Assembly (NCBI GenBank): GCA_035538795.1
Contig: DATLJS010000055.1
Location: forward strand, 25,426 to 89,425
DNA from: Candidatus Sulfotelmatobacter sp.
GTDB lineage: Bacteria; Pseudomonadota; Alphaproteobacteria; Rhodospirillales; Magnetospirillaceae
Direction: 5' to 3'
Length of the DNA: 64,000 bases
The position numbers were made by a program, and so were the translations under genes. Below the pieces are notes generated by a model. That model worked only from the letters and a program-made list of their open reading frames with translations. It did not search any database and had not been told where the DNA came from. Shown one piece after another: positions 18,373-54,399 of the stretch. Numbering within the stretch: position 1 is the stretch's first letter; each line of letters begins with the position of its first letter.

Positions 18373-19838
18373 GACTTCATGGCCTCCAGCAAAGCCTTTT
18401 CCAGACCGTAATAGCTGGCCTTGACCGCCAGGGCCGGGCGCAGGCCGGAAGATTCGAAGGAGCCGTGAACCTCGTCGCCGAAGGTCGAGGTGTCGTAGTG
18501 AAACTGGAACAGGTCCTGGCTGATGATGATGTCGCCTTCCATGCCCACCAGTTCGGTGATCTGGGTGACCCGGCGCACGCCGTCGCGCATGCGTTCCAGC
18601 TGAACGATCAGATGCACGGCGCTGGCGATCTGGCGGCGGATCGACAGCAGCGGCAGATTGCCGTTGGCCAGCAGCACCATACTTTCCAGGCGGGTCACGG
18701 CGTCGCGGGGATTGTTGGCGTGGATGGTGGTCATCGAACCGTCGTGGCCGGTGTTCATGGCCTGTAGCACGTCGAACGCCTCGACCCCTCGGGTCTCGCC
18801 GAGGATGATGCGGTCGGGCCGCATGCGCAGGGCGTTGCGCACCAATTGCCGCTGGTCCACCGAACCGCCGCCCTCGATGTTCTCGGGGCGGGTTTCCAGG
18901 CTGACCACATGGGGCTGTTGAAGCTGAAGCTCGGCGGCGTCCTCGATGGTGATGATGCGTTCGCGGGGATCGATCATCTTGGACATTGCGTTCATCAACG
19001 TCGTCTTCCCCGAGCCGGTGCCGCCGGAAATGATGATGTTGCTGCGGCTGGCGGTGGCCACCTCCAGCAGTCGAGCCATGCCCGCCGACAGATTCTTTTG
19101 CTGCACCAGACGGTTGAGGGTGTAGCTGCGCTTCGAGAACTTACGGATGGAAATGCAGGCGCCGCGGATGGCCAGGGGCGGCAGCACCACGTTGACGCGG
19201 CTGCCGTCGGGCAGACGGGCGTCGACCATCGGGCTGGATTCGTCGACCCGCCGCCCGACGGTGGCGGCGATGCGCTGGGCGACGTTGATCACATGCATGT
19301 TGTCGCGGAATTTCAGCGGCGTCAGTTCAAGCCGGCCATGGCGTTCGACGAAGACTTGATCCGGCCCGTTGACCAAGATGTCGGTCACGGTTTCGTCGGC
19401 CAGCAAAGGTTCGATGGGACCGATGCCGAACATGTCGTTCAGCATCTCCTCGACCATCAGCGCCTGTTCGGTGCCCGTCACCATCAGCCGGTCGCGGGTG
19501 ACGATGTCGGCGACCATGACGGCCAGATCGTGGCGGATCTGATCGCGGTTGCGGCTGGCGGCGGTGGAAACGTCGATACTGGCAAAGACGGCGCTGCGAA
19601 TCTGCAGATAGGTGGTCGAACGCACCAGATGCTCTTTGCCCTCGGGCGGAATCGCGTGCATCGATGCCAGCAGGCCCGGTTGCGGCTTGGGCTGGATGTC
19701 CGAGGAGATTTCAGCAAAGGACGAGACGGCGGAAGACGCGGCCGGCTGTTCGGAAGACGGCACGGCGGTTTCCGCCGAGACGATGTACTCGGGAACCGAC
19801 AAGCCTTCGACGGCGACGCTGTTTTTCCGCCCGAACAT
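18369..19838 (-). CDS. cpaF: CpaF/TadA family secretion ATPase
   Basis: Walker [10 protein letters not shown] and the VirB11/GspE-type ATPase core ([27 protein letters not shown]), in a tad context. Confidence 0.92.
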
Positions 19839-21100: not shown

Positions 21101-21105
21101 CCAGT

Positions 21106-21765
21106 CTAGTTGGAGGTGGGTTTGCTGGTCGAAGTGGTCTGACGCAACACCTTGACCTTGTCGGCATTGTAACGGTCCACAGCCTCGGATTGAGACTCGC
21201 CGTCCGAACCGGCATAGGCCCGGCCCTCGGCCAGATCCGCCGGATTGGCGACGCTGGCGGCCAGATTGTTGTAGGTGGCGCAACCGAAGGCGACCGATGG
21301 ACGCTTGTCGAAATCCAGCATCGGCGTCGGCGTCACCGCTTCGTTATGGGTGATCATGCTGTCGCAATCCGGCCCCGTGGCGGTCAGGTGATAGAGCACC
21401 AGAACCACCTGGTTTCCCGGCGCCGAACGGCTGTCCAGGGCGACCAGATCGACGGGAATGCCCAGCGCCTGCACCGAGGCGCGGAAAGAATCCTGCGCCG
21501 GCAGGGGCTGGCCCATCGGCCACTGCACCCGCACCCGCAGGTCGCCGGTACCGGTGGCCGTCAGATGGGCTTTGACCCGGTTGCGGTCCTCCAGACTGGG
21601 CTGGCTGAAATTCGACAGGGCCAGTTTTTCGGAAACCGCCTCCAGCTTGATCGACGAGGCGTCGGGCAGGGGCGTGTAGTCGGGCCTAGGGAAACAGCCG
21701 CCCAGCAGCAGAAAGGCCAGAACGGTCAGATGCGGGACGGTCCGGAACGAGGTGGGACGAATCAT
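21106..21765 (-). CDS. cpaD: CpaD-like pilus-assembly lipoprotein
   Basis: Lipobox (LLLGGC), appropriate size, and position between cpaC and cpaE. Confidence 0.6.
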   Translation of the reverse strand: MIRPTSFRTVPHLTVLAFLLLGGCFPRPDYTPLPDASSIKLEAVSEKLALSNFSQPSLEDRNRVKAHLTATGTGDLRVRVQWPMGQPLPAQDSFRASVQALGIPVDLVALDSRSAPGNQVVLVLYHLTATGPDCDSMITHNEAVTPTPMLDFDKRPSVAFGCATYNNLAASVANPADLAEGRAYAGSDGESQSEAVDRYNADKVKVLRQTTSTSKPTSN

Positions 21766-21779
21766 GATGCGGTCCTTCC

Positions 21780-23210
21780 CTAGTAACTGAAGCCGGCGGC
21801 GCCCATCAGGCGCGGAGCGTCCGGCGCCAGAGGGTCGATGCCGTAGCGGGTCTGGGTGATGCGTTCGACGTCGCTGGCCGGCTTCAGGCTTTGCAGCGGC
21901 GTGCGCAGCACGTTGCCGCCCACCGGGCGCACCAGATAGGCGGTGACGATGACCACCAGCTCGCTCTTGTTGTTCTGATAATCCTGGGACGAGAACAGCT
22001 TGCCCAGAACCGGCAGATTGCCCAGACCGGGCAGCCGCGAGACGGAATCGTGCATGTTGTCCTGCAGCAAGCCGCCGACGGCGAAGCTTTGCCCGCTGGC
22101 CAGTTCGACGGTGGTTTCCACCCGCCGCACGGTCAGGCCGGGGATGGTGATGCCGTTCATGGTGATGCCGTTGTCGGAACTCAGTTCGCTGACCTCGGGA
22201 CGGACCATGACGCTGATGCGGTCGTTGGACAGCACCGTGGGTGTGAAGTCCAAGGCCACGCCGAACGGCTTGAATTCGATGGAAATGGCGTTGCTACTGC
22301 TGGAAGACGAACCGCTTTGCGCCACCGGAATGGGGAATTCGCCGCCGGCCAGGAAGCTGGCGGTCTGGCCCGACACGGCGGTCAGATTGGGCTCGGCCAT
22401 CACCGAGATCAGACCCTCGGCGTCCAGGGCGTCGAGCATGGTCTGGACGTTGTATTTGCCGTTGCTGTAGCCGCCCAGCACCGACCAGGCTGAAGTGGCT
22501 ATGTTATAGGTTTTGGTGGTGTCGTTATACCAGTCGCGGCCGTTCAGCACGCCGGCCACCACGTTGCCCGGCGTCATCAAGGCCTGCCAGTTGAAGCCGA
22601 ACTGCTGGGTGATGTTGCGCGACATCTCGACGATGCGCACCCGCAGCTGGACCTGAGTCGGGCGTTGCACCGACAGGCTGTTGATCAGCTTCTCGTCCTT
22701 GGACAGCAAGGGCGTCACCGTGTTGACCACGGCGTTGACCTCGTCGGGGTTGTTCACCACGCCGCCGATCATCACCGAGCCCGGAGCCGAGGACAGATTG
22801 AAGTTGTAGGAAGGGAAGCGCTGATGCAGCAGATCGCGGATCTCGACCAGATTATGGCGGACCACCACCGAGCGGCGCAGCACCACGCGATTGTCGCCGT
22901 CGACGGCGAACAAAGTGGTGGTGCCGGTCTTTTTGCCCAGCACAAAGATGCCGGTGGATGACGGCACCTGAACATCGGCGACATCGGGATTGGCGATGAA
23001 GACGCTCAAGGACGGGCGCGGCAGAGTCAGGAACTCGCCCTCGCCCACCGCCAATAAAAGCTGTTCGCCTTTCGGCTGCTCGCTTTTCGGCTGAAGATCG
23101 GCGGCCAAGACGGCTTGGCCGGTCAAAGCGGCAGCCAGGACGGCGGCCAGGAAGGCCGCGGCGATCCGGCGGAGATATCCCGCGAACAGACGTTTCACCC
23201 GTTCCATCAT
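21780..23210 (-). CDS. cpaC: CpaC/RcpA secretin (type II/III secretion system secretin family)
   Basis: Signal peptide, a BON-like N-terminus and a C-terminal secretin domain (GGEFPIP...VRPEVSEL...LPGLGNLPVLGKLF). Confidence 0.88.
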   Translation of the reverse strand: MMERVKRLFAGYLRRIAAAFLAAVLAAALTGQAVLAADLQPKSEQPKGEQLLLAVGEGEFLTLPRPSLSVFIANPDVADVQVPSSTGIFVLGKKTGTTTLFAVDGDNRVVLRRSVVVRHNLVEIRDLLHQRFPSYNFNLSSAPGSVMIGGVVNNPDEVNAVVNTVTPLLSKDEKLINSLSVQRPTQVQLRVRIVEMSRNITQQFGFNWQALMTPGNVVAGVLNGRDWYNDTTKTYNIATSAWSVLGGYSNGKYNVQTMLDALDAEGLISVMAEPNLTAVSGQTASFLAGGEFPIPVAQSGSSSSSSNAISIEFKPFGVALDFTPTVLSNDRISVMVRPEVSELSSDNGITMNGITIPGLTVRRVETTVELASGQSFAVGGLLQDNMHDSVSRLPGLGNLPVLGKLFSSQDYQNNKSELVVIVTAYLVRPVGGNVLRTPLQSLKPASDVERITQTRYGIDPLAPDAPRLMGAAGFSY

Positions 23211-23266
23211 CCCAATTCCTCACAGCCTTGCAGGCTTCTTTTCAAGTTGGCCGACGGCCAGATTAG

Positions 23267-24187
23267 TCACTGAACCGGCACGGAAACCGGAGCGCCGCCG
23301 GCGGGCACGTCGTCGCGCTTCGCTCCATGGAAGATCGTCGGCAGGGACTGCGGCGCGGCGGCGGCGGTTTTGGCCGCTTTCGGCGACATCTCCCGCACCG
23401 CCCGCGACACGTCGTGCTCCCAAACCGGAGCCGGGGCCTCGGCTTCCGCCTTGGCCTGGGCGTCGCCTTCGCGGCGCACCGTCGCCAAACTGCGCAGGGA
23501 CAGCGACAACTGGCCCAGGCGGCCGGCTACCGTCACCTTTTCGGCGTCGCGGGGCTCGACCTCCAGGGTCAGGGTGCGGGCGTTGTGGCTGTTGGCGGAG
23601 TTGGCGGCGGGCGCCGATCCGTCGGCGTCGGGCAAATGCATCAGGCTGCCGACGGCGATGACCCGCACGTCCCCCAGAATGGTTTCGCTGGCCACCTTCG
23701 GCACTTCGCCGCTGTCGCCCTGGGAAATGCGCTGGGTCAGCAGCAGATCGACCCGGTCGCCCGGCAGGATCAGACCGGCATTGCCGGTGACGTCGTCGAT
23801 GGCCACGGACACGGCGCGGGTGCCGGGATGCAAGGCCGCCGCCAGAAAACCGGGCGCGTCGGGAAAGACCACGTCCTTTTCCTCGACCACCATGCCGTCG
23901 TCGATGGGATGGCGAACCACGGCCCCCATCAAACGCTTGGCCAGGGGCGAGCCTTTGACGATCTGGCCTTTGGCCACGGAAGAGGCGGGAATTTCCTTCC
24001 AGCCCAGGTCATTGCCGTTCAGCAGAAGACCGGGGGACAAGGCGGCGGCGGCAATCTGGATTTCCGCCATGGGTTCGGCCTTTTGCCCTGGGGCGCTGAC
24101 CGAAACGAACAATCCGCGCAGCAGAATCGCGGCCACGGTGGCCATGACCAAGACCGCTGCGATGCGAAAGGCCGAATTCTTGTTCAT
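23267..24187 (-). CDS. cpaB: Flp pilus assembly protein CpaB/RcpC
   Basis: N-terminal transmembrane helix, a SAF-like domain and the conserved position downstream of the prepilin peptidase gene. Confidence 0.8.
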   Translation of the reverse strand: MNKNSAFRIAAVLVMATVAAILLRGLFVSVSAPGQKAEPMAEIQIAAAALSPGLLLNGNDLGWKEIPASSVAKGQIVKGSPLAKRLMGAVVRHPIDDGMVVEEKDVVFPDAPGFLAAALHPGTRAVSVAIDDVTGNAGLILPGDRVDLLLTQRISQGDSGEVPKVASETILGDVRVIAVGSLMHLPDADGSAPAANSANSHNARTLTLEVEPRDAEKVTVAGRLGQLSLSLRSLATVRREGDAQAKAEAEAPAPVWEHDVSRAVREMSPKAAKTAAAAPQSLPTIFHGAKRDDVPAGGAPVSVPVQ

Positions 24188-24217
24188 CTGACGTCATTTC
24201 CCCCCACGGACGATGCG

Positions 24218-24697
24218 TCATGTCCGTGCAGACGCGGCCAAGGCGGCCAAGACGCCTCCGACGGACAAAGCCACGCCGTAGGGAACGCCCCGTTCCGCCG
24301 AAAACAGAGTCAACGTTCGCGCCAGAAGAACGGGCAGGGACAGGCGGCAGAGCAACCCGGACAGGAACCCCAGCAGACCCAGGATCAGGCCGCAAACTGC
24401 GACCACCACCAAGATCCCCAGGGCGTTCTCCAACCCGGCCCACAGAAACACCGGCAAAGCCAGCTTGACGTCGCCACCGCCGATCCAGCCCAAAGCGAAA
24501 AAGAGGGTCATGGCCAGAAAGGCCGCCCCCCCTACCGCCAGAGTGGATGCCAGGTCCGGCAAGCCGCCCCCACGGCTTGCCAAGAACCCAACCCACGACA
24601 GCAACAACAGCCCCACCAGGATGTTGTCGATGCAGCGCCAGCCCAAATCCCGCAGGGCGACCACGGCAAAAACCGCGCAAGCCGCCCACGCGAACAT
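24218..24697 (-). CDS. cpaA: A24-family prepilin peptidase CpaA/TadV
   Basis: Small polytopic protein with the GGGDVKL motif, immediately downstream of the flp pilin gene. Confidence 0.82.
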   Translation of the reverse strand: MFAWAACAVFAVVALRDLGWRCIDNILVGLLLLSWVGFLASRGGGLPDLASTLAVGGAAFLAMTLFFALGWIGGGDVKLALPVFLWAGLENALGILVVVAVCGLILGLLGFLSGLLCRLSLPVLLARTLTLFSAERGVPYGVALSVGGVLAALAASART

Positions 24698-24706
24698 TGA
24701 ACTAAC

Positions 24707-24886
24707 TTATTGGGTGGCGCTGGTGAGTTCGGTGCCGACTTTGGAGAAAACGCTCGACAATTGGGTTTTAACGCCCGAACCGCCGACCGCCGCCGAAAGA
24801 CCGACAACCATCAGACCCGCCAGAATGGCGTATTCCAGGGCACTGACGCCGCGCTTGTCGCGCAGCAACGAGAAGATAAAGCGCAT
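24707..24886 (-). CDS. flp: Flp/Fap family pilin
   Basis: 59 aa, MRFIFSLLRDKRG/VSALEYAILAGLMVVGL, with the G-XXXX-EY Flp processing motif. ATG 24886 is preceded by a GGAGGG SD. Confidence 0.85.
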   Translation of the reverse strand: MRFIFSLLRDKRGVSALEYAILAGLMVVGLSAAVGGSGVKTQLSSVFSKVGTELTSATQ

Positions 24887-25287
24887 TCTAAATCCCTCCA
24901 CACGATCCGGCCTCATGCCCGATGGCTATTCTTACGGGTGCAAGAACCACCCACATCGGCCAGAAGTGTCTTGATGCTGTAACAATGCATCATCCGCTGT
25001 AAATATCCGTATGGATAATATGGTCATACCACAGGGTTAAAACCGTCCTGCGGGTTGCCGCGAATTGCCATTTCCGATGAGTTAATTCGGCTTAGATGCA
25101 ACCCAAACGACAACATAAACCCATGTTTATATTGTTGTTTTTTCTTGACTAGGATGGAAAACCTTCGGCGTTCCGTTCCTGATCAATATATCCTCATGGG
25201 TATTACCGTCCCGGCCGAACCGGTAAGTCGAAATCCGGAGAATGTGACAACCTATGTAACATCTGTCGCAAATAGAGGGCGGATCAT

Positions 25288-25330
25288 AAAAAAAACCGCC
25301 GCGGCCCGTTCCCGGACGGCGGCGGTTTTT
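25288..25330. terminator. bidirectional rho-independent terminator
   Basis: An A8 run, the stem ACCGCCGC...GCGGCGGT and a T5 run. On the minus strand the hairpin is followed by T8, 28 nt after the stop of the 25358-26362 gene. Confidence 0.75.
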
Positions 25331-25357
25331 GATGGAAAAATATTTTCCGTCAAAGAA

Positions 25358-39153: not shown

Positions 39154-39993
39154 TCAGGTGACGATGATTTCGGCGGACGCGCCGGTATGGCGGATATAAT
39201 GCTGCAGAATGGCCGCCGAAGCTTCCTCGATGGACCGGCGCGACACGTCGATGACCGGCCAGTTGTGGCGGGTGAACAGACGCCGGGCCATGGCCACTTC
39301 CTCGCGCACCTTGTCCAGGTCGGCATAGTCCGCTTCCCCGTCGTGATTGAGAAATTGCAGCCGCGACCGGCGGATGTCGGTCAGGCTTTTCGGTTCCTTG
39401 GTCAGTCCGACGATCAGCGGCCGCTTGGCTTGGAACAGTTCGGGGGGCGGTTCGATCCCCGGCACCAGCGGAATATTGGCGGCCTTCAGGCCCCGGTTGG
39501 CCAGATACATGCAGGTCGGAGTCTTCGAGGTTCGGGAAATTCCTACCAGAATGACGTCGGCATCGTCCAGATCGTGCAGCAGCTGGCCGTCGTCGTGGGC
39601 CAGGGTGAAATGCATGGCGTCGATACGGCGGAAATATTCGGCGTCGAGAACATGCTGACGGCCCGGCTGCGCACCGAATTCCGAATCCAGATAACCGGCC
39701 AGCGCCCCCATCACCGGATCCAGCACCGGCACGAAGGGAACATGCATGTGGCGGCAGGCTTCTTCCAGAAGACCGCGCACGCCGCCGTCGAGAACTGTGG
39801 CCAGCACCAGGCCGGGATTGGCCTCGATGCCGGTGATCACCCGTTCGACCTGCTTTTCCGTACGCACCAGCCACCAGGGATGGGTGATGGCCTCGACTTT
39901 TTCAAACTGCACCAGACAGGCGCGGGCCACCGAGTTCAAGGTCTCGCCGGTGGCGTCGGATACCAGATGAAGATGGAATTTCTTGACCGACAC
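39154..39993 (-). CDS. pyruvate, phosphate dikinase / PEP synthase regulatory protein (DUF299 kinase/pyrophosphorylase)
   Basis: FHLHLVSDATGETL N-terminal motif and a GISRTSKTPTCMYLA P-loop. The start is uncertain. GTG 39993 gives the ~279 aa typical of the family and leaves a perfect DnaA box intergenic. In-frame ATGs at 40041 and 40080 are alternatives. Confidence 0.8.
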   Translation of the reverse strand: MSVKKFHLHLVSDATGETLNSVARACLVQFEKVEAITHPWWLVRTEKQVERVITGIEANPGLVLATVLDGGVRGLLEEACRHMHVPFVPVLDPVMGALAGYLDSEFGAQPGRQHVLDAEYFRRIDAMHFTLAHDDGQLLHDLDDADVILVGISRTSKTPTCMYLANRGLKAANIPLVPGIEPPPELFQAKRPLIVGLTKEPKSLTDIRRSRLQFLNHDGEADYADLDKVREEVAMARRLFTRHNWPVIDVSRRSIEEASAAILQHYIRHTGASAEIIVT

Positions 39994-40377
39994 GAAGGCA
40001 CCGTCCTGTGGATAAGTCCGAACTTCGGGGATAACCCCCATGGTTTCGCCAGTGTGCCAATTTTGCCCCCCACATGCCATGGCCTAATCCATTCCTCGGC
40101 CCCCCTGTGGAGCGAAGACTTCGTCGCCGATACGGAATCGGGGATGTTTCGCAGACACCGCCATTATCCCCGTTTTCCAGTGGTCGCCGTCCCCATGATT
40201 CCTTGATCGACCTCAAGGGCTTGCGGACGGTTGAAGTCTTATTGTCCACAGAATTCCTCGTCAGGGGATAAAAGGTGGATAATTCGCGGGACAGCCTGTG
40301 CGAAGAGTCGCATCCCCGTTATCCACAGGCATCCACCATCACAGCCACCTTTCCTAATACCTTTAAGACCTGTATTG
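39994..40377. other. oriC: putative chromosomal replication origin (oriC) with DnaA-box cluster
   Basis: Two perfect TTATCCACA boxes (40007-40015 reverse, 40319-40327 forward). Two one-mismatch boxes (40242-40250, 40274-40282). Three two-mismatch boxes (40026-40034, 40164-40172, 40263-40271). Three GANTC sites. The spacer is non-coding and lies between a DUF299 gene and hemE, as at the Caulobacter origin. Confidence 0.7.
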
Positions 40378-41460
40378 ATGAGCCCAGTTCCAGTCACCAC
40401 GCCGGCCACGGAGACGACCTTGTCCCAGCATCCGCAAAAAGCCTTTCTGCGCGCCCTCAAAGGCGAAACCGTCTCGCCGCCGCCGTTCTGGCTGATGCGC
40501 CAGGCCGGACGCTATTTGCCGGAATACCGCGAAGTCCGTGCCGGCTGCTCCGGCTTCCTCGATCTTTGCTACACGCCAGAAAAAGCCACGGAAGTCACAC
40601 TCCAGCCGCTGCGCCGTTATGGCTTCGACGCCGCCATCTTGTTCTCGGACATCCTGGTCGTGCCCGACGCCCTGGGTCAGCCGGTATCCTTCCGCGAAGG
40701 CGAAGGCCCCAGGCTGAACCCCATCCGCGACGCCACCGGTTTAGACAAATTGTCCAAGAACGGCTTCAAATCCCATCTGGCTCCGGTCTTCGAAACCGTT
40801 TCCCGTCTGTCTAAAGCCATTCCCGCAACCACCGCGCTGATCGGCTTCGCCGGAGCCCCCTGGACGGTCGCCACCTATATGGTCGAAGGAGCCGGCTCCA
40901 AGGAGTTCGTTGAAACGAAAAAGCTGGCCTATGGCCAGCCGTCTGTTTTCAAGGCGTTGATCGACCTTCTGGTGGACGCCACCGGCGACTATCTGATCAC
41001 TCAGATCGATCACGGCGCCGAAGCCATCCAGCTTTTCGACAGCTGGGCCGGCGTGCTGCCGGAAGAAGAGTTTTCAAAGTGGGTGATCGAACCCACCCGC
41101 CGACTGGTCGAACGCATCAAGAGCGAACGGCCGGGAATTCCCGTCATCGGTTTCCCCCGCTGCGCCGGAGCTTTGCTGCTGCCGTTCGTCGAACGGACTG
41201 GCGTCGATGCCGTCAGCCTGGACACCAGCGTTCCCTTGGATTGGGCCGCCCGGCATATCCAGACTAAGGTGACGGTGCAGGGCAATCTGGACCCGGTGAT
41301 GCTGATCGCCGGCGGCCCGGCCCTGGATCAAGCCATCGACCATGTGCTGAAGGCGCTGGGCAAGGGGCCGTTCATTTTCAATCTCGGCCACGGCATTTTA
41401 CCCTCGACCCCGCCCGAAAACGTGGCACGTCTGGCCGACAAGGTGAAGGGCAGGATTTAA
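40378..41460 (+). CDS. hemE: uroporphyrinogen decarboxylase
   Basis: [16 protein letters not shown] signature near the N-terminus and collinear URO-D similarity across 360 aa. The start is set at ATG 40378, and the ORF-track start at 40231 lies in the DnaA-box region. Confidence 0.92.
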
Positions 41461-43129: not shown

Positions 43130-44386
43130 ATGAATCTTCAGGAATTGAAGGCCAAGACTCCGGCTGAACTTCTCGCCTATGCCGAGGAGCTGCAGATCGA
43201 AAACGCATCGACCTTGCGCAAGCAGGACATGATGTTCGCCATCCTGAAGCAGCTGGCCGAGAACGACACGCCGATCTATGGCGACGGCGTTCTCGAAATT
43301 CTGTCGGACGGGTTTGGTTTTCTGCGTTCGCCCCAGGCCAATTATCTGCCGGGTCCCGACGACATCTATGTTTCGCCCAGCCAGGTCCGCCGCTTCGGCC
43401 TGCGCACCGGCGACACCGTCGAAGGCCAGATCCGGGCTCCCAAGGACGGCGAGCGCTATTTTGCCCTGCTGAAGGTCAACACCATCAATTTCGAGCCGCC
43501 GGAAAACGTGCGGCACCGCATCAACTTCGACAACCTGACTCCGCTTTATCCCGACGAGCGTCTGAAGCTGGAGCTGGAGGATCCCACCAAGAAGGATCTG
43601 ACCACCCGCGTCATCGACCTGATTTCGCCGCTGGGCAAGGGGCAGCGCGCCCTAATCGTGGCGCCGCCGCGCACCGGCAAGACGGTGATGCTGCAAAACA
43701 TCGCCCACGCCATTTCCGCCAACCACCCGGAAGTCTATCTGATCGTCCTGCTGATCGACGAGCGTCCGGAAGAAGTGACCGACATGGCCCGTTCGGTGAA
43801 GGGCGAAGTCATCAGCTCCACCTTCGACGAACCGGCCACCCGTCACGTCCAGGTCACCGAGATGGTCTTGGAAAAGGCCAAGCGTCTGGTCGAACACAAG
43901 CGCGACGTGGTGATCCTGCTGGACTCCATCACCCGCTTGGCCCGCGCCTACAATACCGTGGTGCCCAGCTCGGGCAAGGTGTTGACCGGTGGTGTCGACG
44001 CCAATGCCCTGCAGCGTCCGAAGCGCTTCTTCGGTGCCGCCCGCAATATCGAGGAAGGCGGTTCGCTGACCATTATCGCCACGGCCCTGATCGATACCGG
44101 CAGCCGTATGGACGAAGTGATTTTCGAAGAGTTCAAGGGCACCGGCAATTCCGAGCTGATCCTGGACCGCAAGCTGTCGGACAAGCGCACCTTCCCGGCT
44201 ATCGACATCACCAAGTCGGGCACCCGCAAGGAAGAGCTGCTGGTCGATCGCGGCGTTCTGTCCAAGATGTGGGTGCTGCGCCGCGTGCTGATGCCGATGG
44301 GCGTGGTCGACGCCATGGAGTTCCTGGTGGACAAGCTGAAGCATTCGAAGACCAATTCCGATTTCTTCGACGCCATGAACAGCTGA
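43130..44386 (+). CDS. rho: transcription termination factor Rho
   Basis: [22 protein letters not shown]-terminal domain, the OB-fold RNA-binding region (GFGFLR), Walker A PPRTGKT and RecA-like core motifs across 418 aa. Confidence 0.96.
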
Positions 44387-44414
44387 TCTCGTTCACCGGT
44401 CCGAAAAAGCAAAA

Positions 44415-44447
44415 GGGCGCTGTTCCACGTGAAACAGCGCCCTTTTT
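44415..44447 (+). terminator. rho-independent terminator of rho, stem built around a parS-like palindrome
   Basis: GGGCGCTGTT-CCACGTGA-AACAGCGCCC followed by TTTTT, 29 nt after the rho stop. Confidence 0.8.
44421..44436. other. parS: parS site (TGTTCCACGTGAAACA, 1 mismatch to the palindrome)
   Basis: Matches the canonical ParB-binding consensus TGTTNCACGTGAAACA, read directly. Confidence 0.8.
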
Positions 44448-44509
44448 GTATGTTGTTAAGCCTAGTATCTTGCTTCAATCAGGGTGATCGCGATTAAGGG
44501 GATATTCAC

Positions 44510-46189
44510 ATGAAAATCAAATCCATCATGATCCGCTTGAGCGGGTTGATTCTCCTCAGCGCCGTGGGGTTGGCGCTGCTGTCTTTTCTCGCGGCGTATT
44601 TCCTGCGCGAAAGCATGATGGATGCAAAAATTTCCGAGGCCCGTGTTCTTGTGGAATCGGCCAGGGATCTGATCAAGGGCTATCACGACCGGGCCGAGAA
44701 GGGGGAATTCGATCAGCAGACGGCGCAGGAACTGGCCAAGAAGGCTATCCGCTCCATGCGTTACGACGGCTCCAATTACTTCGTCATCTACGATATGACG
44801 GTCACTACAGTCGTGCATCCGGCTCGGCCGGAACGCGATGGCAAGAATTTCTATGATGAAAAGGACGGCAACGGGGATCTCTATTTGCATCGAATGCTGG
44901 AAACGGTGAAGCAAGGCGGCGGCGTCAGCACCTATTCCTTTCCCAAGGCGGGCGGCAGCGTTCCCATCGGTAAGACGGCTTATTCCTTGCCCTACGAACC
45001 TTGGGGCTGGTTCATCGTGACTGGTCTTTACATCGACGACATCGACAGTGAATTTTGGAAGACCATCTGGAAATTCCTGGGGATTGGCACCGTCATTCTG
45101 CTGGTCATCTCGGCCACCGCCTTCCTGGTTTCACAATCCATTTCCCATCCTTTGAAGGCTTTGGCCGATACCACCAAGAAAATCATCGCCGGCGATTTTG
45201 CCGTAGCCGTGCCGGCGCTGGAGCGGGCTGACGAAATCGGTTCCCTGGCGGAAGCGGTCCAGCTTCTGCGGGACGAGGCCAAGACCGCTGCCGAGCTTCG
45301 CCATCAGCGGGAAAACGATATGCTCGATGCCGCTAATCAGCGGCATAAAACCATGATCGATATGGCCAAGCGTTTTGAAACCGGCGTGATGGGGGTGGTT
45401 AACGAAGTTTCGTCGTCTTCAGCGAAGATGGTCGAGGTCGGCCGGGTAATGGTTTTCAAGGTTCAGGAAGGCACCAAGCAGTTGGTGAACATGTCGGCGA
45501 CGGCCGAGGAAGCCACCGGTAATGTGGAGACGGTGGCGGTTGCCGCCGAGGAACTGTCGGCCTCGATCCGGGAAATCAGCCGTCAGGTGGCGGAGGCGGC
45601 GAATATTTCCTCAACCGCTTCGATTGAAACCGACCGCGCCAACCAGCTGGTCATCGGTCTGGCTCAAACCACCGACAAGATCGGCGCCGTCGTGCAGCTG
45701 ATCAACGATATCGCCACCCAGACCAATCTGCTGGCTCTGAACGCCACCATCGAAGCCGCCCGCGCGGGTGAAGCCGGTAAAGGTTTTGCCGTGGTGGCCA
45801 ACGAGGTCAAGCATCTGGCCACCCAGACGGCCAAGGCCACCGAGGAAATCACCACCCAGATCAATGCCGTTCAGGATGAAACACGGGGCGCGGTTTCCGC
45901 GATTGGCGGCATCGCCAGCGTCATCGAGCAGGTAAAAAGCATTTCTTCGGGCATCGCCTCGGCGGTGGAGCAGCAAAGCGCCGCCACCCAGGAAATCGCC
46001 CGTAACGTTCAGAACGCCGCCGACGGCACCCAGAAGATTTCCACCCATCTGGAAGAATTGGTGGTCGATGCCGAAACCCGTCTGCAACTGGTCAATCAGG
46101 TGGTGGATTCCATGTCAGGCATGGCCTCCAACACCGATAAGCTGCGTCAGGAAGTGACGGGCTTTATCGACGGCATCCGCAAGGGCTGA
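44510..46189 (+). CDS. methyl-accepting chemotaxis protein (single Cache-type sensor, HAMP, MCP signalling domain)
   Basis: N-terminal transmembrane helix, a Cache-like periplasmic domain (YFVIYD...VVHP...GKNFYDEKD), a second transmembrane helix, HAMP, and the highly conserved hairpin [41 protein letters not shown]. Confidence 0.92.
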
Positions 46190-46216
46190 ACGGCTCTTGC
46201 AAACAAGACAAAGAAG

Positions 46217-46256
46217 GGAGCGTTGTTTCACGGGAAACAACGCTCCTGTTCTTTTT
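46217..46256 (+). terminator. rho-independent terminator of the MCP gene, stem built around a parS-like sequence
   Basis: GGAGCGTTGTTTC-ACGG-GAAACAACGCTCC followed by TGTTCTTTTT. Confidence 0.8.
46224..46239. other. parS: parS-like site (TGTTTCACGGGAAACA, 1 central mismatch)
   Basis: 15 of 16 positions match TGTTTCACGTGAAACA. Confidence 0.6.
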
Positions 46257-46260
46257 CGCC

Positions 46261-46276
46261 TGTTTCACGTGAAACA
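46261..46276. other. parS: parS site, perfect palindrome TGTTTCACGTGAAACA
   Basis: Exact 16-bp consensus in the intergenic space. The palindrome extends to 20 bp (CCTGTTTCACGTGAAACAGG, 46259-46278). Confidence 0.88.
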
Positions 46277-46298
46277 GGAAAATCCTACGGTATCGGCC

Positions 46299-47282
46299 TT
46301 AGGGTAGCAGAATGGTCGAACCGGTGGTTTTGCGGGCTTCCAGGTCGCGATGGGCCTGGGCCGCTTCCGCCAGGGGATAGGTTTGGTTGATTTCGACCTT
46401 GACCGCCTTGGCGGTCACGACGTCGAACAATTCCTTGGCGCAATGGAGCAGGTCGGGCCGGGGGCCGGCATAGGTGCCGAGGGTCGGACGGGTGACGTAC
46501 AGCGACCCCTTGGCCGCCAGAATCCCCAGATCGACCGGACCGATGGCGCCGGAACTTTGACCGAAGCTGGCCAGCAGGCCGCGCGGCTGCAGGCAATCCA
46601 GCGACTGATAGAAGGTGTCCTTGCCCACCGAATCGTAGACCACCGGCACGCCCTTGCCGTCGGTGATTTCCTTGACCCGTTCGACAAAATTTTCGCGGCT
46701 GTAGACAATCGGATGATCACAGCCGTGACGATGGGCCAGCGCCGCCTTTTCATCGGACCCGACGGTGCCGATGACGGTGGCGCCCAGGTGCTTGGCCCAC
46801 TGGCAGGCGATCAGACCGACGCCGCCGGCGGCGGCGTGGATCAAGATGGTGTCGCCGGCCTTCACCCGATAGGTGGAACGCAGCAGATATTGCGCCGTCA
46901 TGCCTTGCAGCATCATGGCGGCGGCATGCTTGTCGTCGATGTCGTCGGGCAGGCGGACCAGACGGGCGGCGGGATAAATCCGTTCCTCGCAATAGGAGCC
47001 GGGAGCGCCCATGGCGTAGGCTACGCGGTCGCCGACATCGACCTCGGTCACGCCGGGGCCGACCTCCACCACGATGCCGGCGCCTTCCATGCCGATCGAG
47101 GCCGGCAGGACGGGAAGGGGATAAAGGCCGGTGCGATGATAGACGTCGATGAAATTCAGGCCGACGGCGGTATGGCGCAGGCGCACTTCGCCGGAGCCGG
47201 GCTTGCCGATCTCCACCTCTTCCCAGCGCATTTGCTCGGGGCCGCCATGGGCGTGGATACGGATGGCCTTGCTCATGATCAC
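46299..47282 (-). CDS. qor: NADPH:quinone oxidoreductase (zeta-crystallin-like MDR family)
   Basis: MDR fold with the HAAAGGVG nucleotide-binding motif and a GEVRLRHTAVGLNFID N-terminal pattern. Confidence 0.82.
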   Translation of the reverse strand: MIMSKAIRIHAHGGPEQMRWEEVEIGKPGSGEVRLRHTAVGLNFIDVYHRTGLYPLPVLPASIGMEGAGIVVEVGPGVTEVDVGDRVAYAMGAPGSYCEERIYPAARLVRLPDDIDDKHAAAMMLQGMTAQYLLRSTYRVKAGDTILIHAAAGGVGLIACQWAKHLGATVIGTVGSDEKAALAHRHGCDHPIVYSRENFVERVKEITDGKGVPVVYDSVGKDTFYQSLDCLQPRGLLASFGQSSGAIGPVDLGILAAKGSLYVTRPTLGTYAGPRPDLLHCAKELFDVVTAKAVKVEINQTYPLAEAAQAHRDLEARKTTGSTILLP

Positions 47283-47740
47283 TGTCCTTTCGTCAAATCG
47301 AAGCCTTCAAGGGCCAGAAGATATTTTTTGGTGTCGGTGCCGCCGAAGCCGGAATAGCCGGTCAGGGCGCCGTTGCCGGCGATGACCCGGTGGCAGGGAA
47401 TGATGATGGGCAAGGGATTGCGGCCGCAGGCGCCGCCGACGGCCCGCGGCGATGATTTCAGCCTGTTGGAAATGTCGCCGTAGCGCAAAATCCGGCCATA
47501 GGGAATTTCCTGCATGATGCGCCAGACGTTCTTTTGAAAGTCGCTACCGGGCGGATCCAGGGGCAGATCGAAGTCCTTCAGCCTTCCTTCGAAATAGGCA
47601 TCGATCTGGCGGGCGGCTTCCAGCAGCAGCGGAGTTTCCTCGCCGTCATCCACTGCGCCCCAGTCCAGACTGACCAGCTTGCCGTTCTCTTCGAACAAGG
47701 TCAGGTCGCAAATGGGGCTGGGAATGGTCAGATAGGCCAT
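47279..47740 (-). CDS. ogt: methylated-DNA--protein-cysteine methyltransferase
   Basis: Active-site IPCHRV motif and a TGYSGFGG pattern, 153 aa. Confidence 0.88.
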   Translation of the reverse strand: MAYLTIPSPICDLTLFEENGKLVSLDWGAVDDGEETPLLLEAARQIDAYFEGRLKDFDLPLDPPGSDFQKNVWRIMQEIPYGRILRYGDISNRLKSSPRAVGGACGRNPLPIIIPCHRVIAGNGALTGYSGFGGTDTKKYLLALEGFDLTKGQ

Positions 47741-47755
47741 GGAAGGACAAGCTCC

Positions 47756-49762
<2,007 letters not shown>

Positions 49763-49891
49763 GAAGGGCCTTTCAAAAATCGGGCTAAGAGAGGATCGCC
49801 CAAGGAGGATTGCATTGATGCTGTCTTACCGCTTAGTTTGGACGTCCGGCCCTTGGTTGCAACCGTCATCCTGCCATTACGGAGCCTGACT

Positions 49892-50152
49892 ATGAAGATC
49901 ACGTTCGATGTGGACTGCACGCCCGAGGAGGCGCGGACCTTCTTCGGTCTGCCTGACGTCAAGTCCATGCAGGATTCCATGATGAAGAAGATCGAGGAAC
50001 GCATGGGCGCCAACCTGGACGCCATGAGCCCCGAAGCCCTGCTGAAAACCTGGCTGCCGGCCGGGGTGCAGGGCATGGAGCAATTCCAGAAAATGTTCTG
50101 GAACGCCTTTCAGGGCAACGGCCAAACCCGAACCAGGAAGAGTGAACCGTGA
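49892..50152 (+). CDS. small hypothetical protein (86 aa)
   Basis: ATG 49892 has a GGAG SD 7 nt upstream. The stop overlaps the downstream GTG start, indicating translational coupling. No family assigned. Confidence 0.45.
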   Translation: MKITFDVDCTPEEARTFFGLPDVKSMQDSMMKKIEERMGANLDAMSPEALLKTWLPAGVQGMEQFQKMFWNAFQGNGQTRTRKSEP

Positions 50153-50517
50153 GTCTGCCTGCCGATCCGCCGCTGTACTTCCGCCTGCATCTGTTCATCT
50201 GCACCAATCAGCGCCCCGAAGGCCATCCCCGCGGTTCCTGCGCCCGCTCCGGATCCGAGAAGCTGCGGGATTATCTGAAGGCGCGGGCCAAGGAACTGGG
50301 GCTGGGTGACGTTCGCGTCAACAGCGCCGGATGTCTGGACCGCTGCGAGTTGGGGCCGGTGCTGGTGATCTATCCCGAAGGCGTCTGGTACGGCTTCAAG
50401 ACGCACGAGGATATCGACGAGATCCTTGCCGCCCATTTGCAGGGCGGCGGCCGGGTCGAACGGTTGATGCTGCGGCCCGAGGACGGCCCCTTCAAAGACG
50501 GCCCGAAGAAGCACTGA
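50149..50517 (+). CDS. thioredoxin-like [2Fe-2S] ferredoxin family protein
   Basis: Cys pattern in HLFICTNQR...GSC...AGCLDRCELGPVLVIYPEGVWY, typical of this ferredoxin-like family. Confidence 0.7.
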   Translation: MSLPADPPLYFRLHLFICTNQRPEGHPRGSCARSGSEKLRDYLKARAKELGLGDVRVNSAGCLDRCELGPVLVIYPEGVWYGFKTHEDIDEILAAHLQGGGRVERLMLRPEDGPFKDGPKKH

Positions 50518-50518
50518 C

Positions 50519-51817
50519 ATGGACAGCATCTTCGCCCTGGCCAGCGCCGCCGGGCGGGCCGGGGTGGCGGTCTATCGCCTGTCCGGCCCCAAGGTGGCCG
50601 AAACGGTCCGTTCCCTGACCGGCGCCGATCTGCCGCCGCCGCGCCGGGCCGTCTTCCGTTCCATCTTTCATAAGGGCGAACTGATCGACCAGGGACTGGT
50701 GATCTGGTTTCCGGCTCCGGCCAGCTTTACCGGTGAGGATGTCGCCGAATTGCAGATCCACGGTGGCCGGGCGGTGGCCCAGGCTCTGACCGAAGCCTTG
50801 CGGGCCAGCGGCCTGCGCCCCGCCGAACCGGGAGAATTCAGCCGCCGGGCCTTCGAGGCGGGCAAGCTGGACCTGACCCAGGCGGAAGCTATCGCCGATC
50901 TGGTGGACGCCGAAACGGCGGCGCAGCGGCGGCAGGCCTTGCGGCAGATGGACGGAGCCCTTTTGCGCCTTTACGAGGATTGGCGTGAACGGCTGCTGCG
51001 GGCTCAGGCTCATCTGGAAGCCGAAATCGATTTTTCCGACGAAGACCTGCCCGGCGGCTTGAGCGAAGCGGCCCGGCTGTCCCTTCAGGACATGATGGCC
51101 GAGATGAGCCTGCATCTGGCCGACGGTCATCGCGGCGAACGGCTGCGTGACGGTTTGCACGCGACCATTCTGGGATCGCCCAACGTCGGTAAGTCCAGCC
51201 TGTTGAACCGTATCGCCGGACGCGAGGCGGCCATCGTCTCGTCGCAGGCGGGAACCACCCGCGACGTTATCGAGGTGCATCTCGACCTGGGCGGCTATCC
51301 CGTGGTGCTGGCCGACACCGCCGGGCTGCGCGAGGCGGGAGAGGCGGTCGAGGAAGAAGGCATCCGCCGCGCCCGCGCCCGCGCCGAAGCCGCCGATCTG
51401 AAACTGGTGGTGTTCGACGCCAGCCAGCCGGTGGACGCCGCGGTGCTGGAGCTGGTGGACGACCAGTCTTTGGTGCTGCTGAACAAGAGTGATCTGGCGG
51501 CGGCCGATTTTCCCCTGAAGGGCATGGCGGTATCGGCCAAGACCGGCGACGGCCTGGATGTCCTGCTGGCGGAACTGGCCCGCCGCGCCGCCGATGTCCT
51601 GGAGGGATCGGGAGCTCCGGCTCTGACCCGCGCCCGTCACCGGGCGGCGATCGAGGACGCGCTGGAGAATCTTCGCCATGCCCTGCATGCGGGGCTTCCC
51701 GAACTGGCCGCGGAAGATGTAAGACTCGCCTCACGGGCGCTGGGCCGAATCACCGGGCGGGTGGATGTCGAGGATATGCTTGACATCATCTTCCGGGAAT
51801 TCTGCATCGGAAAGTGA
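50519..51817 (+). CDS. mnmE: tRNA uridine-5-carboxymethylaminomethyl synthesis GTPase MnmE
   Basis: G-domain motifs GSPNVGKSSL and DTAGLR, with the C-terminal FCIGK tetrapeptide signature. Confidence 0.95.
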   Translation: MDSIFALASAAGRAGVAVYRLSGPKVAETVRSLTGADLPPPRRAVFRSIFHKGELIDQGLVIWFPAPASFTGEDVAELQIHGGRAVAQALTEALRASGLRPAEPGEFSRRAFEAGKLDLTQAEAIADLVDAETAAQRRQALRQMDGALLRLYEDWRERLLRAQAHLEAEIDFSDEDLPGGLSEAARLSLQDMMAEMSLHLADGHRGERLRDGLHATILGSPNVGKSSLLNRIAGREAAIVSSQAGTTRDVIEVHLDLGGYPVVLADTAGLREAGEAVEEEGIRRARARAEAADLKLVVFDASQPVDAAVLELVDDQSLVLLNKSDLAAADFPLKGMAVSAKTGDGLDVLLAELARRAADVLEGSGAPALTRARHRAAIEDALENLRHALHAGLPELAAEDVRLASRALGRITGRVDVEDMLDIIFREFCIGK

Positions 51818-51863
51818 TGTCTCCGCCGCCTGGACCTTCGGGGACATAGAGAACCAAAGACTC

Positions 51864-51879
51864 TGTTTCACGTGAAACA
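51864..51879. other. parS: parS site, perfect palindrome TGTTTCACGTGAAACA
   Basis: Exact consensus in the mnmE-mnmG spacer. Confidence 0.88.
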
Positions 51880-51889
51880 ACGGATCGAG

Positions 51890-53758
51890 ATGGAAAAAGT
51901 CGACGTCATTGTAATCGGCGCCGGACATGCCGGCTGCGAAGCCGCCGCCGCTTCGGCGCGCATGGGAGCCAAGACCCTGCTGCTGACCCAGCGTCTGGAG
52001 ACGGTGGGCGAGATGAGCTGCAACCCGGCCATCGGCGGCTTGGCCAAGGGCCAGCTGGTGCGCGAGATCGACGCCCTGGACGGCGTCATGGGCCGGGTCA
52101 TCGATCGGGCCGGCATTCAGTTCCGCATTCTTAACCGCAGCAAGGGACCGGCGGTGCAGGGGCCCAGGGCCCAGGCCGACCGCAAGCTTTACCGCCGGGC
52201 CATGACCGAAATTCTGGCCGAGACCGCCAATCTGGAAGTGCGCGCCGCCTCGGTCGAGGGATTGCTGACGGCCGTCGACGGCATCACCGTCACCGGCGTA
52301 ACCCTGGCCGACGGCGGCGAGATCGCGTCAGGGGCGGTGGTCATCACCACCGGCACTTTTCTGCGCGGCATCGTCCATATCGGCCAGACTACTTTCCCGG
52401 CGGGACGCATGGGCGACCAGCCAAGCCTTGGGCTGTCAGCATCGCTGGAAAAAATCGGCTTCACTCTGGGGCGGCTGAAGACTGGAACGCCTTGCCGTCT
52501 GGACGGCCGGACCATCGCCTGGGACAGCCTGGACCAGCAGTTGGGCGACGATCCGCCGGTGCCGTTCTCCTATCTGACCGACAAGATCACGACGCCGCAG
52601 ATCGCCTGCGGCATCACCGGCACCACCGAGGCCAGCCACCGGCTGATCCGCGCCAATCTGGATCGGGCGCCGATGTATTCCGGCCAGATCGGCAGCGTCG
52701 GTCCGCGCTATTGTCCCAGCATCGAGGACAAGGTGGTGCGCTTCGGCGATCGCGACCGCCATCAGATCTTCCTGGAACCGGAGGGTCTGGACGACCATAC
52801 CGTCTATCCCAACGGTATCTCCACCAGCCTGCCGGAAGATGTGCAGTTGGCTTTGCTGAAGACCATTCCCGGCCTGGAACAGGCGGTGATGCTGCGGCCC
52901 GGCTATGCCATCGAATATGATTACGTCGATCCCCGCGAACTGTACCGCACCTTGGAGACCCGCCGGGCGCCGCGCCTGTTTCTGGCCGGTCAGATCAACG
53001 GCACCACCGGTTACGAGGAAGCCGGGGCGCAGGGCCTGATGGCCGGTATCAACGCCGCCCTGGCGGTCGGCGGTGGAAGCCGTTTCACCTTGGACCGCGC
53101 CGACGCCTATATTGGCGTGCTGATCGACGATCTGGTGACGCGGGGCACGTCCGAACCCTATCGCATGTTCACCTCGCGGGCGGAATACCGTCTGATCCTG
53201 CGTTCCGACAACGCCGACCTGCGGCTGACGCCGAAAGGAATGGAACTGGGCGTTGTCGGTTCCGTTCGCCGCGACTCTTTTTTGGCGAAGGCGGAAGCCT
53301 TGAAGCAGGGCAGGGCGCTGATGCTGTCTTTGGCTGCCACGCCCAACGAGTTGAAGGCCAAGGGTTTCAACGTCAACCAGGACGGTGTTCGCCGGTCGGC
53401 TTTCGATTTGCTGCGCTATGCCGATGTGACTTGGGAACAGTTGACCGCCCAATGGCCCGGCTTGCAGGGGTTGCGTCCGGATGTCGCCGAACAGCTGGAG
53501 ATCGAAGGGCGTTATGCCGGCTATCTCGATCGTCAGACCGCCGACATTCTCGCCTTCCGCCGGGATGAGGCCTTGGAGCTTCCCGACGATCTCGATTACG
53601 CCGCCATCGGATCCCTGTCCAACGAGGTGCGCCTGAAGCTACAGGCCGCCCGTCCGGCCACGCTGGGGGCGGCCGGACGCATTCCCGGCGTCACCCCGGC
53701 GGCGCTGACCGCCTTGCTGGCCCATGTGAAGCGGCAAGAGAAGGGGAGCGCCGCATGA
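51890..53758 (+). CDS. mnmG: tRNA uridine 5-carboxymethylaminomethyl modification enzyme MnmG
   Basis: FAD-binding motif [15 protein letters not shown] and full-length GidA collinearity. The start is set at ATG 51890, because the ORF-track GTG at 51872 lies inside the parS palindrome. Confidence 0.95.
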
Positions 53759-54399
53759 GCGTTTCACGTGAAACAACCCTGCCGCCCATGAGCCGCGAGC
53801 AGTTTGCCCAGACTCTCTCTGTTTCACGTGAAACGCTGGAGCGGTTGAGCGCCTATGCCGAGTTACTGGTGAAATGGCAGGCCAAGATCAATCTGGTTGG
53901 GCCGGCGACGCTGCCCGACCTGTGGCGGCGGCATATGCTGGATTCGGCCCAGATGGCCGCCCATCTGCCGGACGGGCCGGTGCTCGATCTCGGCAGCGGG
54001 GCGGGATTTCCCGGTCTGGTGCTGGCGGTCATGACCGGCCAGACGGTGCATCTGGTAGAGTCCGACGCGCGGAAATGCGCTTTTTTACGGGAAGCCGCCC
54101 GCATTGCCGGCGCCGACGTCGTCATCCACAACAAGCGGATCGAGGCCGTCGCGCCTTTCTCCGTGGCGGCGGTGACGGCCCGGGCTCTGGCCTCGTTGGA
54201 TAAATTGTTGGATTGGGCTGCGCCCTTTTTGCAACAGCGAACGCAATGCCTCTTCCTGAAGGGGAAGATCGTCGATGAAGAATTGACCCAGGCGGGCGAA
54301 CATTGGAAGATGACCTCCAGACGGGTTCCGTCCTTGTCGGACCCCTCCGGTCTTATTCTCATCCTTAATGAGGTACATCGTGGTCGAGACGAGCGCTAG
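53755..54399 (+). CDS. rsmG: 16S rRNA (guanine527-N7)-methyltransferase RsmG
   Basis: VSRETLERL...[14 protein letters not shown]-terminal pattern and the SAM motif [15 protein letters not shown]. An alternative start at ATG 53788 would place the first parS outside the CDS. Confidence 0.9.
53760..53775. other. parS: parS site (CGTTTCACGTGAAACA, 1 flank mismatch)
   Basis: 15 of 16 match, at the mnmG/rsmG junction. Confidence 0.75.
53820..53835. other. parS: parS site (TGTTTCACGTGAAACG, 1 flank mismatch) inside rsmG
   Basis: 15 of 16 match. It encodes the conserved RsmG peptide VSRET. Confidence 0.75.

Follow-up and report, generated by a model that had tools for sequence, protein, structure and literature searches.

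A Probable hemE-Linked Chromosomal Replication Origin in an Uncultured Rhodospirillales-Like Alphaproteobacterium

Chromosomal origins of replication linked to hemE are known from Caulobacter, Rickettsia, Sinorhizobium and Azospirillum; for Sinorhizobium meliloti, the chromosomal oriC is said to have been found hemE-linked by Sibley et al. in 2006. Here we analyse a 64-kb stretch of contig DATLJS010000055.1 (the window, to which all coordinates refer) and within it the spacer between hemE and the divergent PDRP (DUF299) gene, 39994 to about 40419. Judged by its sequence, this spacer is very probably the chromosomal oriC of an uncultured Rhodospirillales-like alphaproteobacterium. The locus belongs to the hemE-linked type and does not overturn the current understanding of such origins.

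Among the described systems, the Caulobacter origin, Cori, was mapped at the hemE/duf299 junction (PMC6393856, PMC4468827, PMC4285127). The Rickettsia origin was predicted at the same junction and, with the same criteria, those of Wolbachia, Ehrlichia and Anaplasma on the hemE side (PMC6393856, PMC1914354). Sites for CtrA (TTAA-N7-TTAA) have been used as an origin criterion for Caulobacter, Rickettsia and Wolbachia, while the S. meliloti oriC was reported to have neither CtrA motifs nor CtrA binding (PMC4433202). Cori also carries weak W-boxes, whose consensus TCCCCA is one position off TCCACA and which bind DnaA weakly (PMC4285127, PMC6393856). In Azospirillum, oriC was predicted between yqfL and hemE with six DnaA boxes (DoriC ORI97017823; bioRxiv 10.64898/2026.09.14.751567), and for Azospirillum sp. 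B510 a basal unwinding system was predicted that comprises TTATCCACA GGCATCCAC and five trios (Pelliciari 2021 supplement). In the basal unwinding system of Bacillus subtilis, a short link connects tandem boxes to DnaA-trios, after which comes an AT-rich tract (PMC6669920, PMC8287927).

DnaA boxes in the PDRP-hemE spacer

The spacer was read directly and scanned by script for 9-mers. A preliminary description made from the sequence alone had listed seven DnaA-box-like 9-mers, two perfect, two with one mismatch and three with two, and all seven were recovered, position by position and strand by strand. The perfect copies of TTATCCACA, at 40007-40015 on the minus strand (14 bp from the PDRP start) and at 40319-40327 on the plus strand, are the only two in the window, compared to 0.14 expected from shuffles. 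One-mismatch boxes are found at 40242-40250 on the plus strand (TTGTCCACA, within the conserved block TCGTCCACAGG) and at 40274-40282 on the minus strand (TTATCCACC). The latter forms a tandem pair with TTATCCCCT at 40263-40271 (40263-40282, minus strand, 11 bp start to start), in which a TGTGGAT block is conserved. The plus-strand perfect box is the middle member of a head-to-tail triple array facing hemE (40310-40337, plus strand), made up of GCATCCCCG, TTATCCACA, a single g and, from 40329, GCATCCACC; this array is the best-conserved block of the spacer.

This density of boxes is peculiar to the spacer. Four of the ten boxes in the window with at most one mismatch fall in it, and a sliding count over 384 bp reaches its maximum of 7 there, with a runner-up of 5. 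None of the other intergenic gaps of the window holds more than three box-like words. Since the GC content of the spacer is lower than that of the window (55% vs 64%), chance was assessed with 3000 first-order Markov simulations built on the spacer's own dinucleotide composition. Simulated spacers contained 1.05 boxes on average and 6 at most; none of the 3000 had seven boxes, and none had four boxes with at most one mismatch.

The three words first described as two-mismatch boxes (40026, 40164 and 40263) are correctly placed but belong to a second, W-box-like motif class with the core (A)TCCCC, all three reading TTATCCCC(G/T). Two of them are copies of TTATCCCCG: the one at 40026-40034 on the minus strand lies in the block GGGGATAACC, which is almost invariant among the closest relatives, and the one at 40164-40172 on the plus strand has T.TCCCC columns that are invariant in the five closest sequences. 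Another member is ACATCCCCG at 40139-40147 on the minus strand, which shares bases with the GANTC at 40135. There are five copies of the hexamer ATCCCC in the spacer, compared to 0.22 expected from the window rate, and a sixth TCCCC-type site is provided by CCGTCCCCA (40187-40195, plus strand), which includes the exact Caulobacter W-box hexamer TCCCCA at 40190-40195. A weak box with three mismatches and a TCCACA core, CGCTCCACA (40106-40114, minus strand), has its position partly kept in relatives as a TCCCC-type site. Counting two three-mismatch TCCAC-type sites, the TCC[A/C]C core occurs at 12 places in the spacer, six per strand, with two close tandems, 40263/40274 on the minus strand and the triple array at 40310-40337 on the plus strand. 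As the comparison with 71 related spacers shows, W-box-like TCCCC sites occur beside perfect boxes outside Caulobacter.

The same arrangement was sought in 80 hemE loci from other genomes (labelled by L-numbers). In 72 of the 80, PDRP is upstream of hemE and divergent from it, and the 71 close-set PDRP-hemE spacers that were analysed measure 300-640 bp. These spacers make up 3.4% of the fetched DNA yet hold 31 of its 40 perfect boxes (78%) and 128 of its 230 one-mismatch boxes. In alignments with relatives at 60-72% HemE identity, the conserved blocks of the spacer coincide with boxes and most boxes of the window are kept in position. Conserved blocks are GGGGATAACC at 40026, T.TCCCC at 40164, TCGTCCACAGG at 40242 and CCTGTGGAT at 40274, and the strongest is GANTC-N2-3-ATCCCC-N4-TCCACAGG-CATCCAC at 40305-40337. 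At the other end, many relatives likewise have a minus-oriented box beside the start of PDRP, in bins -400 to -460 of the position histogram. The hemE-proximal module, ATCCCC-N4-TCCACA-GG-CATCCAC followed by a G-poor tract and an AT-rich tract, is the best-conserved part of these origins.

Where the linkage of PDRP and hemE is broken, box retention is mixed, which fits known origin relocations. In L052, L063, L069 (Halovulum) and L079 (a Bradyrhizobium metagenome-assembled genome, MAG), the 700 bp upstream of hemE contain no box with at most one mismatch, and the origin is presumably located elsewhere; in L026, L049, L050 and L031, the boxes upstream of hemE are retained although PDRP is not adjacent.

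The candidate unwinding region and other sites in the spacer

Next to the triple array lies a candidate unwinding region, 40338-40379 on the plus strand. Its top strand is nearly free of G (two G up to 40371) and includes the conserved CCACCTTTC; it is AT-rich from 40349 to 40379 and ends in the conserved CCTGTATTGA (40369-40378). The preliminary description had found no conspicuous AT-rich unwinding element, which the nearest-neighbour stability profile contradicts: the segment 40349-40379, CTTTCCTAATACCTTTAAGACCTGTATTGAT, has a stability of -35.0 kcal/mol, compared to a window mean of -47.4 +/- 3.4, which places it within the least stable 0.06% of 31-mers in the window and eighth among the non-overlapping ones in 64 kb. 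It begins 12 bp past the tandem array and is the least stable segment of the spacer. The pattern recurs in the 19 loci that have an ATCCCC-N4-NNCACA module, in which the top strand past the box is almost G-free for about 40 nt and follows the consensus GG CAT CCA C(A/T)A C(C/T)A C..., then TTT(T), then AT-rich sequence. The co-oriented boxes face this candidate unwinding site, with GCATCCCCG in front, TTATCCACA (40319) next and the weaker GCATCCACC (40329) last, and this arrangement is also conserved.

DnaA-trios were scored by the published criterion, under which the strand opposite 5'-TTATCCACA-3' must carry three or more trinucleotides in a row with adenine in the middle, at most 16 bp from the box. 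The sole canonical trio-like run in the spacer of the window is 3'-AAG GAT TAT-5' on the bottom strand (40351-40359), which follows the weak box at 13 bp and the strong box at 23 bp. Clear trio arrays are present in relatives such as L018 and L043. Top-strand runs of at least five were found in 20 of 72 loci, compared to 11.1 in shuffles; the distal part of the spacer has such runs in 1 of the 72. Six loci (L016, L015, L009, L005, L019 and L037) carry long period-3 (N-A-C)n arrays such as TACAACAACAACTACAAC and TACTACCACCACCACCAC, which lie on the hemE-sense strand immediately ahead of the AT-rich tract; these same loci have lost the canonical TCCACA box after ATCCCC, and their central adenine is on the strand opposite to that of the published DnaA-trio rule.

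In the window, the corresponding array reads CCA TCA CAG CCA CC on the top strand, hence 3'-GGT AGT GTC GGT-5' on the bottom strand, and the conserved, nearly G-free CAGCCACCTTTC block is kept. Deviant-trio systems have been suspected to exist (Pelliciari et al. 2021). We tentatively suggest, as a possibility we think rather doubtful, that the array without central adenine in the high-GC clade formed by the window and L001-L003 could be a natural deviant-trio basal unwinding system, one that mixes E. coli-type boxes with W-boxes and lacks CtrA control. If so, DnaA would oligomerise on that strand despite the missing central adenine.

Three GANTC sites, at 40135, 40197 and 40305, had been reported in the spacer, and the scan returned all of them. 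Their number is marginal: 140 GANTC in the whole window predict 0.84 for a 384-bp stretch (Poisson P about 0.05), and the motif is roughly twofold under-represented in the window (140 vs 276 in shuffles). Only the site at 40305-40309 (GAGTC), 2-3 nt upstream of the tandem array, is positionally conserved, being present in the window, L001-L003 and L011 and absent from L004. Some relatives have GANTC-rich spacers. In L010 (uncultured Azospirillum sp.), six GANTC lie within about 65 bp between the DnaA-box module and hemE, at about 5870-5940 (GGAATCC, GGAATCG, GGAATCG, GGATTC, AGATTC, AGATTC), among 11 in the spacer, and L011, L057, L065 and L075 have 7-8 each. Such a GANTC-dense stretch could be a CcrM-methylation-rich extension of some origins.

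No TTAA-N7-TTAA site for CtrA was found in the spacer, even at one mismatch, in keeping with the preliminary description, and no full site was found in any of the 71 related spacers. The absence, which had been put forward as a difference from Caulobacter, is the common state in these spacers and is also seen in the S. meliloti oriC. The CtrA criterion therefore marks a Caulobacter/Rickettsiales subtype and not hemE-linked origins generally; CtrA sites are the exception in these origins and not the rule.

An IHF-like match with one mismatch (40269-40281) overlaps the DnaA box pair, but such matches number 11 across the window vs 12.7 by chance. No Rfam family was detected in the spacer, either with gathering thresholds across the whole window or with permissive E-values at 39700-40700, so that a riboswitch or small RNA explanation fails. 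A promoter and terminator scan of 39800-40600 returned nothing; the conserved TTTCCT-17 bp-TATTGA spacing is a weak candidate for a hemE promoter, judging from sequence.

Replication polarity and rival explanations

A switch from negative to positive GC skew marks the polarity of an origin. The raw cumulative G-C minimum of the window is at 44225, but third codon positions show a strong coding-strand effect (C3 > G3) that dominates the raw profile, and we therefore used regressions with coding strand as a covariate and a single change point. In the window, 500-bp bins gave a change point at 41.0 kb (support 40.5-44 kb, matched by 0 of 500 permutations), and the gene-level analysis gave a support interval of 39-45 kb (matched by 5 of 500 permutations). 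Extending the analysis along the same contig, by 8.4 kb leftwards and 8.7 kb rightwards, to a total of 81 kb and 78 genes, left the change point at 41.0 kb with a support interval of 40.0-42.5 kb and an amplitude of +/-0.036 (0 of 500 permutations). Skew means over 10 kb in the 81 kb were -0.036, -0.040, -0.002, -0.050 and -0.036, then +0.029, +0.053 and +0.032. The GC-skew check, which the preliminary description proposed for the full chromosome and which was run here on 64-81 kb, thus shows a strand-corrected negative-to-positive switch close to the spacer. Co-orientation of genes with the forks is modest over the 81 kb (61% of gene length on the left, 54% on the right).

A cluster of six parS 16-mers lies 4-14 kb to the right of the spacer (44421-53835, at 44421, 46224, 46261, 51864, 53760 and 53820), beside parA (54368) and parB; together, the cluster and parAB fall within 4-16 kb. 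Two are perfect and four have one mismatch, compared to 0.11 sites expected, and both the cluster and the nearby rho-mnmE-mnmG-rsmG-parAB genes, as previously described, are real. The parS at 44421-44436 (TGTTCCACGTGAAACA) is within a longer inverted repeat, AAAAGGGCGC...GCGCCCTTTTT (44408-44450), 22 nt past the rho stop. Since this parS is inside an inverted repeat with a T run after it, it doubles as a terminator-like hairpin.

Copies of GGGNAGGG (the E. coli-type KOPS) were also examined for polarity. Whether left or right of the spacer, they favour the plus strand, by 13:1 in the window and 17:2 in the 81 kb; hits include 4399, 5140, 8818, 10009, 11100, 21664, 24332, 38382, 47112, 53308, 56982, 57666 and 61395. 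Their total is that expected by chance. Most copies are antisense in minus-strand genes, and a codon-shuffle null explains most of the bias; none are antisense in plus-strand genes, compared to about 3 expected, a residual bias that codon usage does not account for. No polarity flip of GGGNAGGG was found at the hemE spacers of 54 relatives. Given a count at chance, the effect of codon usage and the lack of a flip in relatives, the polarity test is not decisive.

Several points weigh against placing the origin in the spacer. To the left of it, GGGNAGGG is biased 8:1 to the plus strand within the window, which would run counter to an origin, provided that the motif is polar here. AT skew has no change point, and dnaA is absent from the 81 kb examined. 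At about 30-40 bp, the AT-rich element is short, and the DnaA-trio pattern at this locus is minimal. The GC-skew signal covers 81 kb of one contig, and the source organism is known from metagenome contigs alone.

The box cluster might instead be a DnaA-dependent control region for the divergent PDRP and hemE promoters, or a datA- or DARS-like titration or reactivation site, with the origin elsewhere. Consistent with that, no origin-specific protein site besides the boxes was detected in the spacer and GGGNAGGG polarity does not flip here; the fact that no sigma-70-like promoter was detected is counted on the same side. The strand-corrected skew switch, however, lies within about 1 kb of the spacer, the parS cluster and parAB are adjacent, and the Caulobacter origin was experimentally mapped to the same gene junction, while twelve sites with a tandem array and an adjoining AT-rich tract exceed what regulation needs, and we therefore consider a control or titration site improbable. 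Still less probable is an origin in another spacer nearby, either between rho and MCP (44387-44509) or upstream of the flp pilin gene (24887-25357). The rho-MCP gap is the most AT-rich (47% GC), is close to the raw cumulative-skew minimum at 44225 and falls in a 384-bp interval, 44190-44573, with five two-mismatch boxes, but the gap itself holds only one of these and is filled by the parS-containing terminator-like hairpin and the MCP leader. The gap at 24.7-25.4 kb has 51% GC and one one-mismatch box, but represents the DNA upstream of flp, the pilin gene of a Tad cluster. Neither gap has strong boxes, and the skew support interval from 81 kb is 40.0-42.5 kb. Both were examined as alternative origins and rejected.

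A chance pile-up of box-like words in lower-GC intergenic DNA is the least probable reading, and we regard it as effectively refuted: the low GC content of the spacer raises the chance frequency of TTATCCACA-like words, but the composition-matched simulations never reach the observed counts, the other gaps have few such words, and the boxes are kept in position in distant relatives. Taken together, a box cluster above chance, a PDRP-hemE junction conserved along with its boxes, the skew switch, the parS sites with parAB, and a spacer in which no rival element was detected support the interpretation of the preliminary description that the spacer is an oriC.

From these features we infer that DnaA would bind the spacer, unwind it and initiate replication there. 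In the order we propose, DnaA would first occupy the four strong boxes at 40007, 40242, 40274 and 40319, after which ATP-DnaA would cooperatively fill the weaker TCCCC-type (W-box-like) and TCCAC-type sites. The array of GCATCCCCG, TTATCCACA and GCATCCACC (40310-40337) may serve as a platform that steers the DnaA oligomer onto the nearly G-free, AT-rich 40338-40379, which would then melt, allowing the helicase to enter and forks to depart in both directions. Timing may be tuned by CcrM-type methylation of the conserved 40305 GANTC and by a hemE promoter that may lie in the AT-rich part; direct CtrA control is not expected.

With the origin placed here, the replichores of this uncultured alphaproteobacterium, which is present in several metagenome samples, can be oriented. 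It is useful for coverage-based growth-rate estimates (peak-to-trough ratio), genome finishing and analyses of strand bias.

Neighbouring genes and comparison with described origins

Gene identities rest on NCBIfam profile scans and metagenome gene calls, which were mutually consistent and bear out the gene order first noted around the spacer. To the left, on the minus strand, are dnaQ-coaE-aroE-maf-PDRP, and to the right, on the plus strand, hemE-hemH-hemJ-rho-MCP, the last being a chemoreceptor gene. Farther right follow mnmE-mnmG-rsmG-parA-parB and then holA-lptE-leuS on the opposite strand. The left boundary of the putative origin is the PDRP/DUF299 gene (COG1806, yqfL; 39154-39993, minus strand; NF003742, 331.7 bits), which starts with GTG at 39993; the call is 279 aa long, and its N-terminus, VSVKKFHLHLVSD, aligns from residue 1-6 in relatives. 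The right boundary is hemE (uroporphyrinogen decarboxylase; 40420-41460, plus strand; TIGR01464, 417.5 bits).

The gene caller chose ATG 40378 as the start of hemE, which would make the spacer 384 bp long. We find TTG 40420 to be probably the start, giving a non-coding spacer of 426 bp (39994-40419), because GGAG at 40410-40413 lies 6 nt before it, because similarity to other HemE proteins begins at residue 15, and because the starts of relatives fall 40-60 nt past the conserved non-coding CTTGTATGA, which includes the ATG of the window. This ATG sits within the conserved non-coding motif CCTGTATTGATGA, and the 14 extra N-terminal residues are conserved in no relative.

The same DNA recurs in many ENA metagenome samples (source samples ERZ272548xx-ERZ272557xx), with contigs of 0.2-1 Mb available, and every contig with this hemE is identical across the spacer, which therefore leaves no within-species footprint of the origin. 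In species-representative genomes, the nearest HemE proteins (72% identity) are from unclassified MAGs, followed by Thalassospiraceae, Azospirillum, Rhodospira, Nitrospirillum and Inquilinus, which makes a relationship to Rhodospirillales probable. L089 represents another, closely related strain or species (ERZ27255248, contig k141_2321657), which has an identical porin protein and differs from the window in the lengths of MnmG (618 vs 622 aa), RsmG (204 vs 214) and ParA (269 vs 273). Its hemE spacer, if recovered, would provide a close-range footprint of the origin.

Other genes were noted farther away in the window. A complete Tad/Flp pilus cluster occupies 12538-24886 on the minus strand, with flp pilin, prepilin peptidase, rcpC, secretin, cpaD, a cpaE-like ATPase, tadA, tadB/C and tadE-like genes; its AT-rich upstream gap (24887-25357, 470 bp) contains the one-mismatch DnaA box TTATCCATA at 25010. 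A very large NAD-specific glutamate dehydrogenase gene (2671-7488, minus strand, about 1600 aa, with Bac_GDH family domains) lies beside a gene at 8173-11124 for a 983-aa fusion of a radical-SAM/SPASM domain and a glycosyltransferase-41 domain.

Compared with Caulobacter Cori, the locus has the same hemE/DUF299 junction, stronger 9-mers together with about five weak TCCCC-type sites, internal GANTC, and parS/parAB a few kb off. The Caulobacter gene order beyond the DUF299 gene, which we take to be maf-aroE-coaE-dnaQ, is as here, and the AT-rich part of Cori is presumably on the hemE side, also as here. The two differ in their strong sites, which are two perfect E. coli-type boxes and two one-mismatch boxes here and two moderate G-boxes (TGATCCACA) in Caulobacter, and in the absence here of CtrA TTAA-N7-TTAA sites and of a convincing IHF site. 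The W-like sites end in G or T here and in A in Caulobacter, with the exception of 40190-40195.

The locus closely resembles the predicted Azospirillum origin in its gene junction, in having remote boxes in addition to a proximal group, and in the distance to parAB of about 12-14 kb. The hemE-proximal module TTATCCACA-GG-CATCCAC is identical, and in both a pyrimidine-rich strand poor in G and then an AT-rich tract come after it. The trinucleotide array differs, being degenerate here, with CCA TCA CAG CCA in place of the CTC ATC CTC TTC of Azospirillum, and the spacer is shorter than that of L010, which has the extra GANTC-rich stretch.

With the S. meliloti oriC and the sampled Rhizobiaceae spacers, the locus shares its position next to hemE, its DnaA boxes and its lack of CtrA motifs. 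It cannot be aligned with these sequences outside the boxes, however, and the Rhizobiaceae spacers lack the ATCCCC-N4-TCCACA module. Finally, the hemE-proximal part resembles incC of B. subtilis (DnaA-box 6/7) in order and orientation, each having a strong box with a weaker one in tandem, then a short GC-rich link, strand-asymmetric trinucleotides and an AT-rich tract. Unlike incC, it has just one canonical (N-A-N) run of at least three on the correct strand (40351-40359), at a distance of 13 bp from the weak box and 23 bp from the strong one, compared to a published maximum of 16 bp.

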